From a virus (lineage: Duplodnaviria; Heunggongvirae; Uroviricota; Caudoviricetes), in IMG/VR virus record IMGVR_UViG_2548876944_000018: a DNA stretch of 12,453 nucleotides, one strand, 5' to 3'. Below, in pieces: positions 1,750 to 12,453 of this stretch. Positions within the stretch are counted from its first letter, which is position 1. Every line of letters starts with the position of its first letter. The position numbers and the translations under genes are program-made. The notes below the pieces were generated by a model. The model searched no databases. It saw only the letters and a list, made by a program, of their open reading frames with translations, and was not told where the DNA came from.

Positions 1750-2520
1750 ATGCAAAAATTCCATTACGTTTATCACACCACTATTAAATCTAATCGCTCT
1801 GGTAAAATCTATCATTACGTCGGAAAAAGAACAACCACAAATCTAGACGATGGATATGTGGGATCGGGTAAAGTTATTAAAATGATGAAGCGTAAAAATA
1901 AAGAATCAGAAACCCCGATATATGAATTTGAAGTTGTTCGTTCAAAATTGTTTGATACTGCCGAGGAAGCGTTTGAATGTGAAATCCTGTTAGTGGAGGC
2001 AGCACGCGAAAAATGGGGGCGTGGTGTATGTCTTAATATAGCTCCTGGTGGTGTCGGTGGTTTTGATGGTGGTGAAAATCATCCTTTTTACGGAAGAAAA
2101 CATACACCGGAATCTAGAGCTAAAATGTCGGCATCTCGAATGGGTGAAAAGAACCATCGCTATGGTAAACCTAGTGCAATGAGAGGCAAAAAAGTAACAA
2201 ACCCAGAAATATTAGCTAAATTATCGGCTGCTACTCGTGGAGAGAATAACCCCCGTTATGGTAAACCTGTATCAGAAGAAACACGCGAAAAGATTAGAAA
2301 AGCACATCTAGGGCGCAAGCGACCAGAAAGCTCTACCAAGAAATATACACATTCTATACGTATTGCTAAAGGTCAAGGCTGTTGGCAGCATTACGATGAA
2401 ATCCGGCGCGTGTGGATTGAAAACGGTAAACCCGGCGCGGTTAAATTGAGTCAAATCATGGTTAGCTTAGGCCATCCAAAATACAACCTTCGTAGAATGT
2501 ACGAAGACTTCAAGAAATAA
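1750..2520 (+). CDS. GIY-YIG family homing endonuclease with three NUMOD3 repeats (Seg / I-TevI-like), 256 aa
   Basis: N-terminal HYVY...YHYVGKRT (GIY-YIG-like module), FECEIL (compare FECSIL in I-TevI as recalled) and LNIAPGG (conserved Asn region). Three NUMOD3-type repeats follow: NHPFYGRKHTPESRAKMS, NHRYGKPSAMRGKK and NNPRYGKPVSEETREKIRKAH, then a basic C-terminal tail. The gene is visibly more AT-rich than the flanking tail genes. Confidence 0.85.
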   Translation: MQKFHYVYHTTIKSNRSGKIYHYVGKRTTTNLDDGYVGSGKVIKMMKRKNKESETPIYEFEVVRSKLFDTAEEAFECEILLVEAAREKWGRGVCLNIAPGGVGGFDGGENHPFYGRKHTPESRAKMSASRMGEKNHRYGKPSAMRGKKVTNPEILAKLSAATRGENNPRYGKPVSEETREKIRKAHLGRKRPESSTKKYTHSIRIAKGQGCWQHYDEIRRVWIENGKPGAVKLSQIMVSLGHPKYNLRRMYEDFKK

Positions 2521-6837: not shown

Positions 6838-7116
6838 ATGACTGAAATTATATATGGCGGTATCGGTGTTATCGCCTTAATTTGTGGTGGGCTTTGGAGA
6901 CTTCACCGAAATCAATTAGCCACAGAAAATAGATTGTCGAAATTGGAATCCAGCGACGCATTGTTAAACCAGAAGTTTGAGACGATGCAGAATAACCATA
7001 CTCAGATTGCTGAACGTGTTTACCAAATGGAACAAACACTACACGGTATAGAGAAGAAAGTGGTTGCGATGGACGCCAAATTTGACCAAGTTCTCGACAT
7101 ACTCAAACAAAAATAA
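6838..7116 (+). CDS. Membrane-anchored coiled-coil protein, 92 aa (possible lysis or exclusion protein, holin/spanin-like)
   Basis: ATG with GGGGG 6 nt upstream. It has an N-terminal hydrophobic helix (IIYGGIGVIALICGGLW) followed by about 70 aa of charged, heptad-like sequence. No homolog was recognised. Confidence 0.6.
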   Translation: MTEIIYGGIGVIALICGGLWRLHRNQLATENRLSKLESSDALLNQKFETMQNNHTQIAERVYQMEQTLHGIEKKVVAMDAKFDQVLDILKQK

Positions 7117-7134: not shown

Positions 7135-7305
7135 ATGAAGAATAAACTTAAGAAATATTTTGGTTATCTCTTGATTGTCGCCCTCACTTATAACGTAGCT
7201 ATTAGACCTCTGCTAACGTCCTTTGGGCTTGAACTCCCGGCTATGACCGTGGATGAACAATTGCTAAGGACACTGGCGGGGGGCTTTTCGTTATTAGGGG
7301 GCTAA
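7135..7305 (+). CDS. Small membrane protein, 56 aa (not in the supplied ORF track)
   Basis: My own translation gives MKNKLKKYFGYLLIVALTYNVAIRPLLTSFGLELPAMTVDEQLLRTLAGGFSLLGG. GGGGTG lies 6 nt upstream of the ATG, and the ORF exactly fills the gap between neighbouring genes (TAA at 7303-7305, next ATG at 7307). It has a basic N-terminus followed by one hydrophobic helix. Confidence 0.5.
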   Translation: MKNKLKKYFGYLLIVALTYNVAIRPLLTSFGLELPAMTVDEQLLRTLAGGFSLLGG

Positions 7306-8385: not shown

Positions 8386-8739
8386 ATGTTAAGCAAACAT
8401 TTTTCTCGCAAGGAATTTAAATGTAAATGCGGAAAATGTGATTATGATACAATCGACGCTGAATTACTGGTAATTCTTGAGGATGTACGAGAGCACTTCG
8501 GGAAGCCAGTAATTATTAACAGTGGGAACCGTTGTCCGACTCATAATAAGAATGTTGGCGGCGCAACCAATAGCTATCATGTTCGAGGCCGTGCGGCTGA
8601 CATTGTTATCAAGGGTGTCTCACCTGATATTGTTCATGCTTATCTTGATGGGAAATATCCTACTCAATACGGCTTAGGAAAATATAAAACATTTACGCAT
8701 ATCGATTCCAGATCAAAAAAATCACGGTGGAATGGATAA
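8386..8739 (+). CDS. Peptidase M15 family (DD-/LD-peptidase fold) cell-wall hydrolase, probable endolysin, 117 aa
   Basis: AGGGGG Shine-Dalgarno. FSRKEF...INSGNRCPTHNKNVGGATNSYHVRGRAADI matches the conserved SG(Y/N)R...HN...GG...S.H..G.A.D core of small phage M15-type peptidases. A CKCGKC cysteine cluster lies near the N-terminus. Confidence 0.8.
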   Translation: MLSKHFSRKEFKCKCGKCDYDTIDAELLVILEDVREHFGKPVIINSGNRCPTHNKNVGGATNSYHVRGRAADIVIKGVSPDIVHAYLDGKYPTQYGLGKYKTFTHIDSRSKKSRWNG

Positions 8740-9011: not shown

Positions 9012-9269
9012 CTATGATTTATTTTCTTGTTCTATGAAAATCTTTCTCACCTCATCAGAATAAATGTCTAGTGATTCCTCATAACATTTTCTGTATTCAT
9101 CGTAATTACTGGTGGTCTTTTGACATAGCAATTTCAATGTCTTATGTGCTCCATCAATGAAAGCATCTTTTCTATAGGTTAGCGGTCTACGCATTTCTTG
9201 GTCTACGGTTGCCAATGCCAAGCAAGAATTCATAGATAAAATCAAACCTAAAATCTTAATCATCTTCAT
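9012..9269 (-). CDS. Small secreted protein with a signal peptide, about 85 aa
   Basis: The track start at 9284 is TTG. The first ATG (9269) gives MKMIKILGLILSMNSCLALA followed by TVDQ, a typical signal peptide with an A-x-A site. The mature part has two Cys residues. The ATG lies 4 nt after the recombinase stop. The region is AT-rich. Confidence 0.6.
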   Translation of the reverse strand: MKMIKILGLILSMNSCLALATVDQEMRRPLTYRKDAFIDGAHKTLKLLCQKTTSNYDEYRKCYEESLDIYSDEVRKIFIEQENKS

Positions 9270-9273
9270 TAGC

Positions 9274-10953
9274 TTAAATTCCAAATTCTTGTAATGGACC
9301 TGGTATTTCTTCTTCTGGTTTCCAGTTCTTATCTGTCAGCATGTCTAAACATGGATGCAGAACAAGCCCGTTACTCTCCAGAATCTGCCTATCATTGATA
9401 GTCTTCAAATCAACGAAGATCCGGCCTTTCCTCGGTCCTCTTGAATTTTCTATTACAACTCTCTGGGTCTTGCCATCGATGTATTCCAGTACAAACAAGT
9501 TTTTGTACTTGTCAATCCTGCTACACCCGATCCGTTTTAGAGCTTGCTTAATCTTAAACCGGACCTTAATGCGATCCTCGTTGTAAACATCTTCTAAATC
9601 AAATTCTGCGAGCTTCTCCCAGCCTTGAGAGTCAACAGAATACATTTCCTCTTCTGCCATCTTAAGTTGATTGTAGAGTGTTTCACGCTCGCTATTGAGG
9701 GTAGTAATCTGATCGGCTAGCTCCTTCGTTGCTCCTGTCATAGCAGAAAGGGTAATCAGGTTATCAATCTTGCGTGATATTTCATCAATCTGTACTTTCA
9801 AAGCCGGAACCGGATTAGCCTTATCTTCAGCAATCCAGATTTTATCAGCCAGCAATTGCAATACAGCTTTCTCTAATTGGTCGCCGCGAAAACTCCAGTT
9901 TGTATGCACACATTCAATACGACTAGAGCGCATTGCATCGCATGAATAACGATATTGGTTAGGCCGTCTGTTTGTTCCTTTCACCTTAACCATAGCGGAA
10001 CCGCAATGTTCACATTTCAATAGACCAACACCACTAAGCAAGGGAATAGGTTTAGCTTCTTCTTTGTCTCCAAAGTTACATGCTCTAACACCAATGCTTT
10101 TCTTAAGGTGATAAAACTCAGCGTCATCTAGCACACGAGGATAATAATCCTTTAACTCATACTTAACGCCATCTACAGAGATTTCCTTGATACCAATCAA
10201 AGCGCGGGTATGGAACAACCTTTCAATCATTGCCCGTGACCAGTTTGAATGCCTCTTGTGACTTGCGGCTGGTGGTGGTGTGTATGTCGCGTTAAGGTGA
10301 TCCAGTATCTCGGCGGTTGACCGTCCATTCCTGCGTAATTCCACAACTTCCTGAACAATAGGGAAGAAGACCGGATGAGGAAGCACATAACCAGATGTGG
10401 TATCAGTCCACCACATATTCTTTCCAATTTCCTCGATTGCAACAGCCGGATTTTGTGGATTTTCTTGATGAGCTTTAATCTTAATCAGTGCGCTTGAGTT
10501 AGTACGATTGCGCTTAGTCTGGCTTTCCTCATTACCACGGATGAATAAAAGGATGGAGAACATCAGGTCCATCGGGTTAGCGGTAACAGTATCAAGCGAG
10601 TAGATCTTGTTATCCATGCCAGTAACAATGGTTATCCCCCTACGGATGATTGAAAGGAATAACTCCTGCGCACTGACAATATCGGCACGGGATAAACGGT
10701 CCAAGTTTTCGATGAATAGCCAGCTACCAACAGGAACGGATCTACCTATTGCATCAAGGAAACGAGATAGCGCCCCTGTTTTGGAGTTAGCACCCTTAAA
10801 CGCAGATACACCCAGATCCTGATAATCATTTACCAGTTCAAGGTCATACTTTACCGCAATCTCTCTAGCCATCCTGATTTGTCGTTCATAACTCGAACCA
10901 TCATTCTGACGCATAGACGAGAAGCGAATATACGAATACAGTTTAGTTTTCAT
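9274..10953 (-). CDS. Large serine recombinase (serine integrase family), about 559 aa
   Basis: N-terminal resolvase-type catalytic motif YSYIRFSSMRQ...SYERQ with the nucleophile Ser near residue 10. A Cys-rich zinc-ribbon segment (CEHCGSAM...YRYSCDAMRSSRIECVH) and a coiled-coil region (ALKVQIDEISRKIDNLITL...) follow. The track start is TTG at 10968; the ATG at 10953 is preferred. Confidence 0.9.
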   Translation of the reverse strand: MKTKLYSYIRFSSMRQNDGSSYERQIRMAREIAVKYDLELVNDYQDLGVSAFKGANSKTGALSRFLDAIGRSVPVGSWLFIENLDRLSRADIVSAQELFLSIIRRGITIVTGMDNKIYSLDTVTANPMDLMFSILLFIRGNEESQTKRNRTNSSALIKIKAHQENPQNPAVAIEEIGKNMWWTDTTSGYVLPHPVFFPIVQEVVELRRNGRSTAEILDHLNATYTPPPAASHKRHSNWSRAMIERLFHTRALIGIKEISVDGVKYELKDYYPRVLDDAEFYHLKKSIGVRACNFGDKEEAKPIPLLSGVGLLKCEHCGSAMVKVKGTNRRPNQYRYSCDAMRSSRIECVHTNWSFRGDQLEKAVLQLLADKIWIAEDKANPVPALKVQIDEISRKIDNLITLSAMTGATKELADQITTLNSERETLYNQLKMAEEEMYSVDSQGWEKLAEFDLEDVYNEDRIKVRFKIKQALKRIGCSRIDKYKNLFVLEYIDGKTQRVVIENSRGPRKGRIFVDLKTINDRQILESNGLVLHPCLDMLTDKNWKPEEEIPGPLQEFGI

Positions 10954-10960
10954 ACCATTT

Positions 10961-11002
10961 CCAAACAAAAACGCCCCTACCGCGTATTATAACGATAGGG
11001 GC
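10961..11002 (-). terminator. Rho-independent terminator immediately upstream of the recombinase gene, with TATAAT in its loop
   Basis: On the minus strand: GCCCCTA(T)CG, loop TTATAATACG, CG(G)TAGGGGC, then GTTTTTGTTTGG. The T tract ends about 8 nt before the recombinase ATG. Confidence 0.6.
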
Positions 11003-11016
11003 TAGGTGATTAAAGA

Positions 11017-11436
11017 TTAAAGAATTTCACGGCAGCTAATCAGGGAATAAGACGTATCACCTTTTTTAACATCAAATATAGGCGCGCCATCTACAGAATG
11101 CAGATATTTGATGTAGGATTTACCATCTTCGGAACCATAATATTCTTCTTTCTCGTTCTTATCTCCTTTCAGTTTTGGGCTTTTGATTGTTTTATCAAAT
11201 ACCGGATCGTTGAAAGCAAATTGACTATTATCATCATTCACTCGAACCTTTACACCGATAAAACCACGGTATTTGCCAGACGGCGCATGATAATAACGGT
11301 CGCCATCACTCAGGTAGCGTGTATCATCTCCTTTATATTCGAAGTAGGAATTGCACACATAATAGGTATAGGTATTAGCATTCGCAGCACCAACCAAACC
11401 CAGAGCAAGAACAACACCAGCGATAATCTTTTTCAT
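11017..11436 (-). CDS. Secreted (periplasmic) Tyr-rich protein with a signal peptide, 139 aa
   Basis: Strong Shine-Dalgarno (AAGAGGAAA) upstream. The N-terminus MKKIIAGVVLALGLVGAANA followed by NTY is a canonical Sec signal peptide. The mature protein has one Cys near each end. No homolog was recognised. Confidence 0.7.
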   Translation of the reverse strand: MKKIIAGVVLALGLVGAANANTYTYYVCNSYFEYKGDDTRYLSDGDRYYHAPSGKYRGFIGVKVRVNDDNSQFAFNDPVFDKTIKSPKLKGDKNEKEEYYGSEDGKSYIKYLHSVDGAPIFDVKKGDTSYSLISCREIL

Positions 11437-11481
11437 AGTAGAATTTCCTCTTGTTGTTTGAATTACGATATATTTATATCA

Positions 11482-11604
11482 TTAAAAGTTAATGCTAATA
11501 ATCAGACCAAACACAACCGCACCAATCAAATCAATCCAGTTAATACACAGCGAATATTCTTTCTTGAATGTCTTAGATGAAATGCCATCATGAAATTGTT
11601 TCAT
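11482..11604 (-). CDS. Micro-ORF, 40-aa peptide with a C-terminal transmembrane segment (not in the ORF track)
   Basis: My own translation gives MKQFHDGISSKTFKKEYSLCINWIDLIGAVVFGLIISINF. GGGGTGAG lies 5 nt upstream of the ATG, which begins 3 nt after the stop of the preceding micro-ORF. Confidence 0.4.
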   Translation of the reverse strand: MKQFHDGISSKTFKKEYSLCINWIDLIGAVVFGLIISINF

Positions 11605-11607
11605 TGC

Positions 11608-11688
11608 TCACCCCATACTAACGACAATATAAGAAAGACTAATCATGGTTGTGAGACTACCTCCCACGAATGAGATAAAAGCTAACAT
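11608..11688 (-). CDS. Micro-ORF, 26-aa hydrophobic peptide (not in the ORF track)
   Basis: My own translation gives MLAFISFVGGSLTTMISLSYIVVSMG. GGAGA lies about 8 nt upstream. It sits directly after the repeated intergenic stem-loop and directly before the 40-aa ORF. Confidence 0.3.
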   Translation of the reverse strand: MLAFISFVGGSLTTMISLSYIVVSMG

Positions 11689-11704
11689 GTTTGATTCTCC
11701 ATTT

Positions 11705-11740
11705 AAAAAGCGGTGGGAATTACACCCACCAAATTAGAAA
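11705..11740 (-). repeat. Intergenic stem-loop element, copy 1 (terminator-like on the minus strand)
   Basis: Plus-strand CGGTGGG-AATTACA-CCCACC-AAATTAGA. On the minus strand this reads TCTAATTTGGTGGG...CCCACCG followed by CTTTTTAAA. It lies directly after the stop of gene 11745-12131. Confidence 0.55.
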
Positions 11741-11744
11741 TTAA

Positions 11745-12131
11745 TTAAGCGCGAACGATGGTCAGAGTATCCAGCAAACCTTTTTCGTATAATTCGAAAC
11801 ACGTTTTATATTGCTCAATCTTCCAACCGTAGCGGGTGATCTTATTCAGTAGAATAATCACGGTATTCTCATCTAGGTATTGTCCTTGCTTACCAATTAC
11901 ATATGACTCGCGGGATAGTCTCAGCTTACGGAAACCTTTAACACCTAATTCCTTAGCCACCGCTTTAACCTCGTTAATCTCACCTTCTGCGGCTACATAT
12001 TCAGCGTCGATAATCTCAGTTGATGATCTCAGTGCTACCAGAACTAAGGCCATTGCTTCTTCTTCGGTACGAGCAACACCAGCTTTCTCGAAAGTCATCT
12101 CACCAAATTTACGAGTCATAATATTGAACAT
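11745..12131 (-). CDS. Hypothetical protein, 128 aa
   Basis: Clean ORF on the minus strand between the two copies of the stem-loop element. Only a weak Shine-Dalgarno (GGAA) precedes the ATG at 12131. No motif was recognised. Confidence 0.65.
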   Translation of the reverse strand: MFNIMTRKFGEMTFEKAGVARTEEEAMALVLVALRSSTEIIDAEYVAAEGEINEVKAVAKELGVKGFRKLRLSRESYVIGKQGQYLDENTVIILLNKITRYGWKIEQYKTCFELYEKGLLDTLTIVRA

Positions 12132-12150
12132 TGTCGTATTCCGTTTAAAT

Positions 12151-12180
12151 CGGCGGGAATAGTACCCGCCAAATTAGACA
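12151..12180 (-). repeat. Intergenic stem-loop element, copy 2
   Basis: Plus-strand CGGCGGG-AATAGTA-CCCGCC-AAATTAGA. It has the same 6-bp stem and 7-nt loop geometry and the same AAATTAGA flank as copy 1, with a compensatory T:A to C:G change in the stem. It lies directly after the stop of gene 12181-12453. Confidence 0.55.
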
Positions 12181-12453
12181 TTACTTCTTGCTGATAAACT
12201 CTTTAGCGATAAAGTTGATTACTTCTTTCAGCTTCTTGTCTGTATCGATGCACGCTGGTAATTCTTCTTTAATATCCTGCGGCAGATACACATTGCCTTT
12301 AAAGTGGAGGAAACCATCATTACCAATCATGTAGGAGAACATCCATTCACAATCGTTATCCGCTTCCCAGAACGCCACGGTCTCATCCCCAATCAAGGTA
12401 ATGTCCATGTTGCGACGCGCTGCGTAGTTGATGATTGCTTTACCGATGTTCAT
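12181..12453 (-). CDS. Hypothetical protein, 5' end at the window edge (possibly partial)
   Basis: The frame is open to the last base of the window. An ATG sits exactly at 12451-12453, but the true start may lie beyond the window. No motif was recognised. Confidence 0.55.
   Translation of the reverse strand: MNIGKAIINYAARRNMDITLIGDETVAFWEADNDCEWMFSYMIGNDGFLHFKGNVYLPQDIKEELPACIDTDKKLKEVINFIAKEFISKK

Follow-up and report, generated by a model that had tools for sequence, protein, structure and literature searches.

A conserved pair of microprotein genes beside the serine recombinase of an enterobacterial prophage family

Two very short genes, designated orfA and orfB, are described here in a 12,453-nucleotide (nt) stretch of DNA (IMG/VR record IMGVR_UViG_2548876944_000018), which is referred to as the window and represents the terminal part of an E. 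coli prophage of ~35-38 kilobases (kb). Comparison of the two genes with their relatives makes it almost certain that both are real protein-coding genes, and the sequences of their products suggest, with good probability, that these are membrane peptides. That the two peptides act together is moderately favored by the evidence, and a role in exclusion or defence is speculative and has to be regarded as doubtful. The explanation as a whole, i.e., a real gene pair encoding small inner-membrane proteins that would work by the mechanism proposed below, is given a probability of about 0.4.

Conservation and predicted membrane location of orfA and orfB

Both genes are located on the minus strand, where the sequence-only reading had described two micro-open reading frames (ORFs) of 26 and 40 amino acids (aa), separated by 3 nt and each preceded by a plausible Shine-Dalgarno sequence; this description was confirmed in all respects. 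orfA (11608..11688) extends from an ATG at 11688 to a TGA at 11608-11610 and encodes the peptide MLAFISFVGGSLTTMISLSYIVVSMG, a 26-aa product without a charged residue, which ends in ...VVSMG and thus carries no charged tail. Its grand average of hydropathy (GRAVY) of 1.64 exceeds that of every other ATG-initiated ORF of 20-45 aa in the window (61 in total), and a Shine-Dalgarno GGAG (11697..11700) is found 8 nt before its ATG. orfB (11482..11604) extends from an ATG at 11604 to a TAA at 11482-11484 and encodes the 40-aa peptide MKQFHDGISSKTFKKEYSLCINWIDLIGAVVFGLIISINF; its Shine-Dalgarno-like sequence, GGGGTGAG (11607..11614, minus strand), overlaps the orfA stop codon and forms a translational-coupling junction. 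The polar N-terminus and C-terminal hydrophobic helix (~11485-11540) that had been proposed for orfB are also evident, as residues 1-19 have a net charge of +2 and residues 20-40 have a GRAVY of 1.9; the peptide ends in ...SINF, again with no charged tail. The absence of both genes from the list of ORFs on which that reading was based had been remarked upon; while they are indeed not listed, this reflects a length cut-off only, and orfB is called as a hypothetical protein in some genomes by the NCBI annotation pipeline (RefSeq). orfA was unannotated in the eleven RefSeq annotations inspected and is represented by one unnamed entry among ~15 billion predicted proteins.

The pair is placed beyond chance by its conservation and not by the window alone. 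Conservation of the two frames and the ratio of nonsynonymous to synonymous substitution rates (dN/dS) had been suggested as a check; the comparison showed that both frames are maintained under purifying selection. Among the non-redundant loci carrying orfB, orfB was intact at 59/59 and orfA at 58/59, the exception being locus L041, in which a 1-nt deletion causes a frameshift in orfA. Pairwise dN/dS values ranged from 0.06 to 0.3 for orfB and from 0.14 to 0.6 for orfA where not saturated. The basic N-terminus of orfB (MKQFHDGISSKTFKK, codons 11560-11604) is invariant: between the window and distant lineages, codons 1-15 show zero amino acid changes, while 5-6 of ~7.7 synonymous sites differ, including a TCT/AGC serine switch, and synonymous sites are saturated. 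One insertion or deletion in orfB is 3 nt long and in frame.

The orfB family is small and self-contained, with an invariant N-terminus (M[KR]QFH[DEQN]GISSKT[FY]) and a variable hydrophobic tail. A word-based search yielded 11 clusters, and a profile scan of 1.84 billion representative proteins yielded 9 representatives at 50% identity, all of 39-41 aa except for one mis-called 90-aa ORF. Across the family, the N-terminus has a net charge of +2 to +3 and the C-terminus a GRAVY of 1.65-2.07.

Homologues of orfA were found upstream of orfB in every lineage examined. They are 25-27 aa long, with zero to two charged residues and GRAVY values of 1.6-2.5 (2.0-2.5 in relatives of the window gene). 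Alignment shows M1, Y20 and V22 to be invariant, with at least 90% conservation of S6, F7, S17 and V23; even at 53-56% nucleotide identity, orfA keeps its length, its hydrophobicity and the motif SF..S.VY.VV. Seven of the 9 polymorphic sites among ten distinct allele-A orfA sequences are third codon positions (binomial p ~0.008). Three orfA alleles (A, B and C) occur in E. coli and share ~48% nucleotide identity, with flanks (the hairpin and ribosome-binding site described below, and orfB) that are 87-100% identical. Cassette replacement of this kind is common at loci of conflict between phages. Every allele-A and allele-B locus retains the GGAG upstream of orfA.

The small and polar residues of orfA (S2, S6, S/G9-10, S17, Y20 and N/S24) share one helical face (permutation p = 0.0013), and a one-face stripe of this kind is typical of a helix-packing or pore-lining surface. 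orfA would form a single transmembrane helix, one face of which carries conserved Ser/Tyr/Asn residues. orfB is predicted to be tail-anchored, with the C-terminal helix in the membrane and ending at its periplasmic face; its positively charged N-terminus would be cytoplasmic according to the positive-inside rule.

Coupling, gene order and flanking signals

In the window, the orfA TGA is followed by 3 nt (GCA) and then the orfB ATG, in the same frame. Equivalent junctions in relatives consist of AGGAG-containing spacers or ATGA overlaps, with an ATGA overlap at most junctions in relatives from other Enterobacteriaceae. Moreover, in L014, L015 and L045 orfA overlaps the stop codon of the preceding gene and, by ATGA, the start of the next gene, within multi-gene units. 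Because short spacers or ATGA overlaps join the two genes, or the one or two genes inserted between them, orfA and orfB appear to be translated as one unit. Translational linkage, as had been claimed for the window, therefore holds as a rule across relatives, but relatives do not keep the 3-nt spacing and the shared frame, their junctions showing spacers of 4, 5, 9 or 10 nt, ATGA overlaps or inserted genes. A read-through fusion as the normal product was rejected for the same reason.

Two independent natural in-frame fusions of orfA and orfB were found, in P0002 (TGA to TGG) and P0028 (TGA to GGA; RefSeq WP_096837455.1). Such fusions would require the C-terminus of orfA and the N-terminus of orfB to face the same side of the membrane, and they hint that the two helices may work side by side. 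An AlphaFold single-sequence model of a natural fusion contained helices at residues 2-35 and 39-67 with a break at ISS (predicted local distance difference test score, 76), and was treated as uninformative beyond secondary structure.

The order of elements is constant, i.e., orfA, slot 1, orfB, slot 2, terminator and serine recombinase, with the pair located between the attachment site and the recombinase. orfA and orfB were present in every relative examined, while genes between and after them come and go. Slot 1 is unoccupied in the window and also in L015, the latter having an ATGA overlap of orfA with orfB; elsewhere it holds a 62-aa cytosolic protein gene, a gene for a secreted two-cysteine protein of 75-80 aa, or both, with ATGA at each junction. 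Slot 2 is empty in several lineages, in which the 55-59 nt from orfB to the recombinase are occupied by the terminator; in other lineages, including the window, it encodes a secreted protein of ~134-139 aa. The ribosome-binding stretch GGAGAATCA(AA/CC), found at 11689-11700 (minus strand) in the window, recurs before orfA, before orfB in some alleles (L004 and L009) and before a lipoprotein gene (L012, 5404-5417), and its recurrence before different genes suggests short shared linkers at cassette junctions.

A palindrome, GATATA-AA-TATATC (11467..11480, minus strand), directly follows the orfB stop codon and bounds the downstream cargo slot. The palindrome, (C/T)GATATAAATATATCG, was found at all loci with a cargo gene after orfB other than the L010 remnant truncated by an insertion sequence (IS), and was absent where the terminator and recombinase directly follow orfB. 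In L015 it is doubly changed and compensated, so that it is still palindromic (CGTTATAAATATAACG). It could serve as an operator, belong to a promoter or delimit a cassette.

A terminator scan and RNA folding identified a G+C-rich hairpin with a U-run, GGTGGG-TGTAATT-CCCACC (11711..11731, minus strand), which resembles an intrinsic terminator and is located after the 128-aa gene that precedes the pair, ~20 nt before the orfA start. The hairpin accompanies orfA even where the upstream gene is different (L004 and L005). In L009, L010 and L055, a T-A pair of its stem has changed to C-G by way of a T.G intermediate, as would be expected for an RNA structure formed on the minus strand. The U-run is absent in orfA allele-C loci; at such loci (among L009, L010, L041 and L055), the orfA ATG is found 9-13 nt after the hairpin stem with no Shine-Dalgarno sequence.

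A strong terminator hairpin with a U-run (10973..11002, minus strand), detected in the terminator scan, closes the orfA-orfB unit just before the recombinase start, and a terminator between orfB (or cargo) and the recombinase is conserved across lineages. Its loop holds TATAAT or a near match in most lineages (window 10973-11002; L011-L014, L042, L045 and L046), and in L046 a 10/12 promoter-like site overlaps it; this element may combine a terminator with the integrase promoter. In L044, TTGCAA-17-TATTAT is located directly upstream of an orfA that starts with GTG, but this 9/12 match is within chance expectation. On the plus strand, the sole promoter-like site (11473-11502) likewise matches at 9/12, a score that does not exceed that of shuffled controls; no terminator accompanies it on that strand, and distant lineages do not preserve its -10 element. 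The RNA structure predicted over the orfA/orfB junction is moderately stable (z = -2.3). An Rfam search over 10900-12453 at a permissive threshold (E up to 10) returned chance-level matches only.

The prophage, its relatives and neighbouring genes

In 14EC017, hicB is interrupted by the prophage, with the prophage/host junction 39 bp past the end of the window; related prophages use at least 2 integration sites, hicB or ycdX. In 14EC017, an IS1 splits the tail-tip gene and an IS4-like element splits another structural region (L001 3689-4386; L087 4294-5406), so that this copy of the prophage is probably defective. The 321-bp region around both ORFs was found in 58/5,426 complete E. coli genomes at 82-100% identity, and orfB was found in 26/26 IMG/VR recombinase relatives that include upstream sequence. 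The pair occurs in prophages of E. coli/Shigella and of at least two further enterobacterial host lineages. Next to the distant loci, the ycdY gene of the host shares 86% and 64% identity with that of E. coli, which indicates that the family reaches other Enterobacteriaceae. No relative was found among representative genomes of 185,579 species. The phage collection contained no relative at the DNA level among isolated phages, only an unrelated 42-bp match, and the nearest recombinases in it are ~30% identical.

Database searches placed neither peptide in a known family. Neither the window peptides nor divergent variants had a usable match in Pfam, PHROGs, NCBIfam or PADLOC; the closest was that of orfB to phrog_36089, a family of unknown function (E = 0.089). 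Eight orfA and orfB variants had no Pfam or NCBIfam match to families of small membrane proteins (KdpF, CydX, AcrZ, MgrB, MgtS, PmrR and others), and neither gene showed homology to characterised exclusion proteins (HK97 gp15/YebO, P22 SieA/SieB, T4 Imm/Sp, Cor and Llp) in searches of PHROGs, which include Cor and other exclusion families. Profile searches of PDB returned chance matches to transmembrane segments only. tblastn searches found no match for orfB in sequenced phages (50,697 records) or plasmids and a single chance match for orfA in phages (E = 5), and a literature search on the motif, accession numbers and prophage found nothing specific. The pair represents a new family of a known kind, i.e., phage-encoded small membrane proteins; what is unusual is its constant pairing, its fixed address beside a serine integrase, the orfA allele swaps, the invariant 15-residue tip of orfB and the cargo slots.

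The pair occupies a 308-bp gap (11437-11744) between a 128-aa gene (11745-12131) and a 139-aa gene (11017-11436), all on the minus strand. The guanine-plus-cytosine content is 33% at 11437-11744 compared to 42% for the whole window, although hydrophobic codons and intergenic DNA lower it anyway. Upstream, the 128-aa gene and a 90-aa gene, both of unknown function, are transcribed in the same direction and reach the prophage end (11745..12453, minus strand; matches to phrog_14908 and phrog_6147); these genes differ between lineages. Downstream, the 139-aa cargo gene (11017..11436, minus strand), the function of which is unknown, has a signal-peptide-like start (MKKIIAGVVLALGLVGAANA), which agrees with the earlier claim that the pair is located directly upstream of a gene for a secreted protein. 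This gene is variable; in relatives it is absent or replaced by genes for other signal-peptide proteins. Its product has no Pfam or NCBIfam match, and a match to the PADLOC defence-candidate model PDC-M63A (E = 0.005, 15 bits) is too weak to interpret. A plus-strand antisense ORF of 160 aa (11098-11580) was considered spurious, as the gene it overlaps is swapped out in relatives. The term phage accessory region, as used in the sequence-only reading, therefore fits the region with its changing genes for secreted proteins but not the pair, which is the constant part of it.

The large serine recombinase gene (9274..10953, minus strand), which encodes the prophage integrase (Pfam Resolvase, Recombinase and Zn_ribbon_recom; PHROG integrase), adjoins orfB, with its slot, in every context examined. 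The plus strand carries the late genes (tape measure, tail tip and endolysin), which run toward the recombinase unit in a convergent orientation; a NUMOD3 homing-endonuclease gene is found within the tail module (1750-2520, plus strand). Two small late-region ORFs with N-terminal hydrophobic segments (6838-7116, plus strand, 92 aa with a coiled-coil tail, and 7135-7305, plus strand, 56 aa) represent better holin or spanin candidates than orfA and orfB; no transmembrane segment was found in the ORFs adjoining the endolysin.

Envelope proteins are common around the pair, including signal-peptide proteins, a lipoprotein and an Ail/Lom-type beta-barrel. Small secreted two-cysteine proteins (...Y..Y.EC[YF]..Y...) are encoded downstream of the recombinase in the window (9012-9284, minus strand) and between orfA and orfB elsewhere (L014 5777-6004, L042 2145-2378, L044 4777-5004, L045 4762-5004 and L047 4774-5004); the two members scanned (window 9012-9284 and L014 5777-6004) had no Pfam or PHROG match. 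In NZ_CP024134.1 (L001/L087, 2556.7-2594.65 kb), an LprI-family (lysozyme-inhibitor-like) gene at the far prophage end points outward across the attachment site, and after circularisation it would be directly upstream of, and codirectional with, the unit formed by the 90-aa gene, the 128-aa gene, orfA and orfB. In L011-L013 and L042-L048, the stretch between recombinase and endolysin contains variable genes (UvsW-like helicase, UvsY, T5orf172/MUG113 nuclease-like and CapR-like) and looks like a second accessory or defence hotspot.

Proposed mechanism, alternative explanations and known systems

We propose that orfA and orfB may form a hetero-oligomeric inner-membrane complex that is expressed from the prophage. 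A moron is a prophage-borne unit that is transcribed on its own, and the orfA-orfB unit would work in much the same way, being transcribed independently of the late genes, with the conserved terminator insulating the integrase. The Ser-lined helix of orfA, found in swappable allelic forms, would contact a membrane target, such as the entry channel of an incoming phage or an inner-membrane protein of the host, and a conserved partner in the cytoplasm would be bound by the invariant N-terminus of orfB, with the outcome that other phages are excluded or defended against. Hints of a role in phage conflict come from the replacement of orfA alleles within near-identical flanks, from the envelope-protein neighbours and from the precedent of HK97 gp15. 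Several observations weigh against this proposal. The pair is constant among relatives, unlike a classical moron, which is sporadic, and has no homology to exclusion, defence or toxin families in Pfam, PHROGs, NCBIfam or PADLOC. No convincing sigma-70 promoter was found upstream of orfA in the window, where scans performed no better than on shuffled controls, and in allele-A loci a terminator-like hairpin is located 20 nt upstream of orfA. The unit may be expressed after infection rather than from the prophage, because, once the phage genome is circular, the gene at the far end of the prophage would read across the attachment site into the operon. In addition, the fusion alleles could be loss-of-function mutants, and the 59 non-redundant orfB loci are not independent but represent about a dozen distinct lineages.

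If the conserved partner were a host protein, the pair could instead regulate an inner-membrane protein or protease of the host and thereby tune the lysis-lysogeny decision or envelope physiology. Small single-pass peptides of E. coli commonly regulate larger membrane proteins (e.g., MgrB on PhoQ, AcrZ on AcrB, MgtR/MgtS, and lambda CIII on FtsH), and this explanation would account for an orfB N-terminus of 15 residues that is invariant even though the flanking ycdY of the hosts is only 64-86% identical, as well as for a pair that represents a constant core beside the integrase and not sporadic cargo. It is considered unlikely since Pfam and NCBIfam gave no sequence similarity to MgrB, AcrZ, MgtR/MgtS or CIII, and since a conserved host target would make the allelic replacement of orfA more difficult to explain. 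The size and extreme hydrophobicity of orfA also resemble those of Ibs- and ShoB-type toxins, its hydroxyl-lined face could line a pore, and the two genes are tightly coupled and always co-occur, near a prophage end, where toxin-antitoxin genes are often housed. orfA might therefore act as a pore-forming or depolarising toxin that orfB restrains or triggers, for addiction or abortive infection. This seems rather improbable, given that translation of orfA would start from a ribosome-binding site of its own or an ATGA overlap within polycistronic units rather than from a silenced monocistronic mRNA, that neither a conserved antisense promoter or terminator nor an Rfam match was found, that no orfA or orfB variant matched a toxin family (Hok/Gef, Ldr, Ibs, TisB, ShoB or Zor) in Pfam, NCBIfam or PADLOC at E values up to 1-10, and that fusion alleles persist in natural isolates. 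A type I toxin-antitoxin system was rejected, as the peptide size fits but antisense signals were not found and the genes show polycistronic coupling.

The insertion of mostly signal-peptide cargo exactly between orfA and orfB or after orfB, together with motifs that recur at the junctions (the ribosome-binding site GGAGAATCAAA and the palindrome that follows orfB), could indicate that the pair is a scaffold for envelope-cargo slots, either as a sequence for translational coupling and cassette exchange or as an aid to the secreted proteins in their insertion or function. There is little to recommend this view, however, as the pair stays intact without intervening cargo (window and L015) and without cargo after orfB (L011-L014 and L041-L045), selection acts on the amino acid sequences and not on nucleotides alone, and the cargo proteins bear ordinary Sec-type signal peptides. 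It is very improbable that the peptide products are irrelevant and that the two frames serve as regulatory upstream ORFs or as an RNA element; the hairpin directly upstream and the structure over the junction would fit, but amino acid conservation, saturated synonymous change, motifs kept at ~50% nucleotide identity and the lack of an Rfam match argue otherwise. A role as holin, antiholin or lysis-timing modulator, suggested by the nature of both products as small phage membrane peptides and by the pinholin-like size of the fused form (~68 aa, two helices), has the faintest prospect of these explanations. The pair is on the opposite strand, ~2.7 kb from the endolysin (8386-8739, plus strand) and beyond the recombinase, better membrane candidates for lysis occur in the late region (6838-7116 and 7135-7305), and orfA and orfB have neither a charged C-terminal tail nor a dual-start motif, no match to a holin family in PHROG or Pfam and the wrong predicted topology for a pinholin. 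The proposal of a holin modulator was rejected on position and features; with the lysis genes so placed, it is the least likely among the functions that had been listed from the sequence.

Returning to the proposed inner-membrane complex, a bolder formulation, which we consider unlikely, is that orfA and orfB represent a minimal two-peptide membrane system of 66 residues at the core of a serine-integrase prophage family, in which orfA would be a swappable specificity allele and orfB an invariant, tail-anchored adaptor that would touch a conserved partner with its 15-residue cytoplasmic tip. Such a system would exclude or abort phages, or couple membrane status to the lysogeny machinery, and would delimit the envelope-cargo slots. 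Genes this short are routinely missed, yet enterobacterial prophages conserve orfA at the protein level. The pair offers testable conserved phage microproteins with a fixed integrase-side address, natural alleles and natural fusions, and the whole system is small enough for exhaustive synthesis and mutation. Should exclusion, defence or control of a host membrane protein prove true, the pair would be among the smallest such systems known and would identify a hotspot of envelope-modifying cargo in the prophages of E. coli and Shigella; should it be without a phenotype, it would be one more small hypothetical family.

Among known systems, natural orfA-orfB fusions (68-69 aa, two helices) are similar in size to pinholins and class II holins such as S21 68, but the predicted topology of the pair is opposite (N-terminus out, loop in, C-terminus out), and the pair is found outside a lysis cassette, with no signal-anchor-release endolysin and no holin family match. 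Class IIb two-peptide bacteriocins also consist of two co-transcribed peptides of ~25-40 aa with small-residue motifs and joint membrane action; the pair differs in having no double-glycine leader, ATP-binding cassette exporter, immunity gene or export signal, and in occurring in a Gram-negative organism. Type I toxins (Ibs, ShoB, TisB, Hok, Ldr and Zor) share a length of up to 50 aa and a single hydrophobic helix, with orfA matching Ibs and ShoB in size and hydrophobicity; unlike these toxins, the pair shows polycistronic translation and has no antisense RNA signals, long structured leader or family match. E. coli MgrB, AcrZ, MgtS, KdpF, CydX and Blr, as well as lambda CIII, belong to the same size class, have single-pass topology and would be comparable in the action proposed, i.e., binding of a larger membrane protein or protease, but they are chromosomal (CIII being encoded in an early operon) rather than an integrase-side coupled pair, and they share no sequence similarity with orfA or orfB. 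HK97 gp15 (YebO-like), the first moron described, is a small inner-membrane superinfection-exclusion protein that blocks genome entry (PMC3594210). Like gp15, the pair is prophage-encoded, small, predicted to be located in the inner membrane and part of a terminator-bounded unit that is surrounded by structural or accessory genes, in a siphovirus-type prophage of E. coli. The two are not similar in sequence; gp15 is one larger protein that has chromosomal homologues and is sporadic among relatives, whereas the pair consists of 26 and 40 aa, is limited to this prophage family and is constant within it. Prophage expression and an exclusion phenotype have been shown for gp15 (PMC3594210) and are proposed for the pair.

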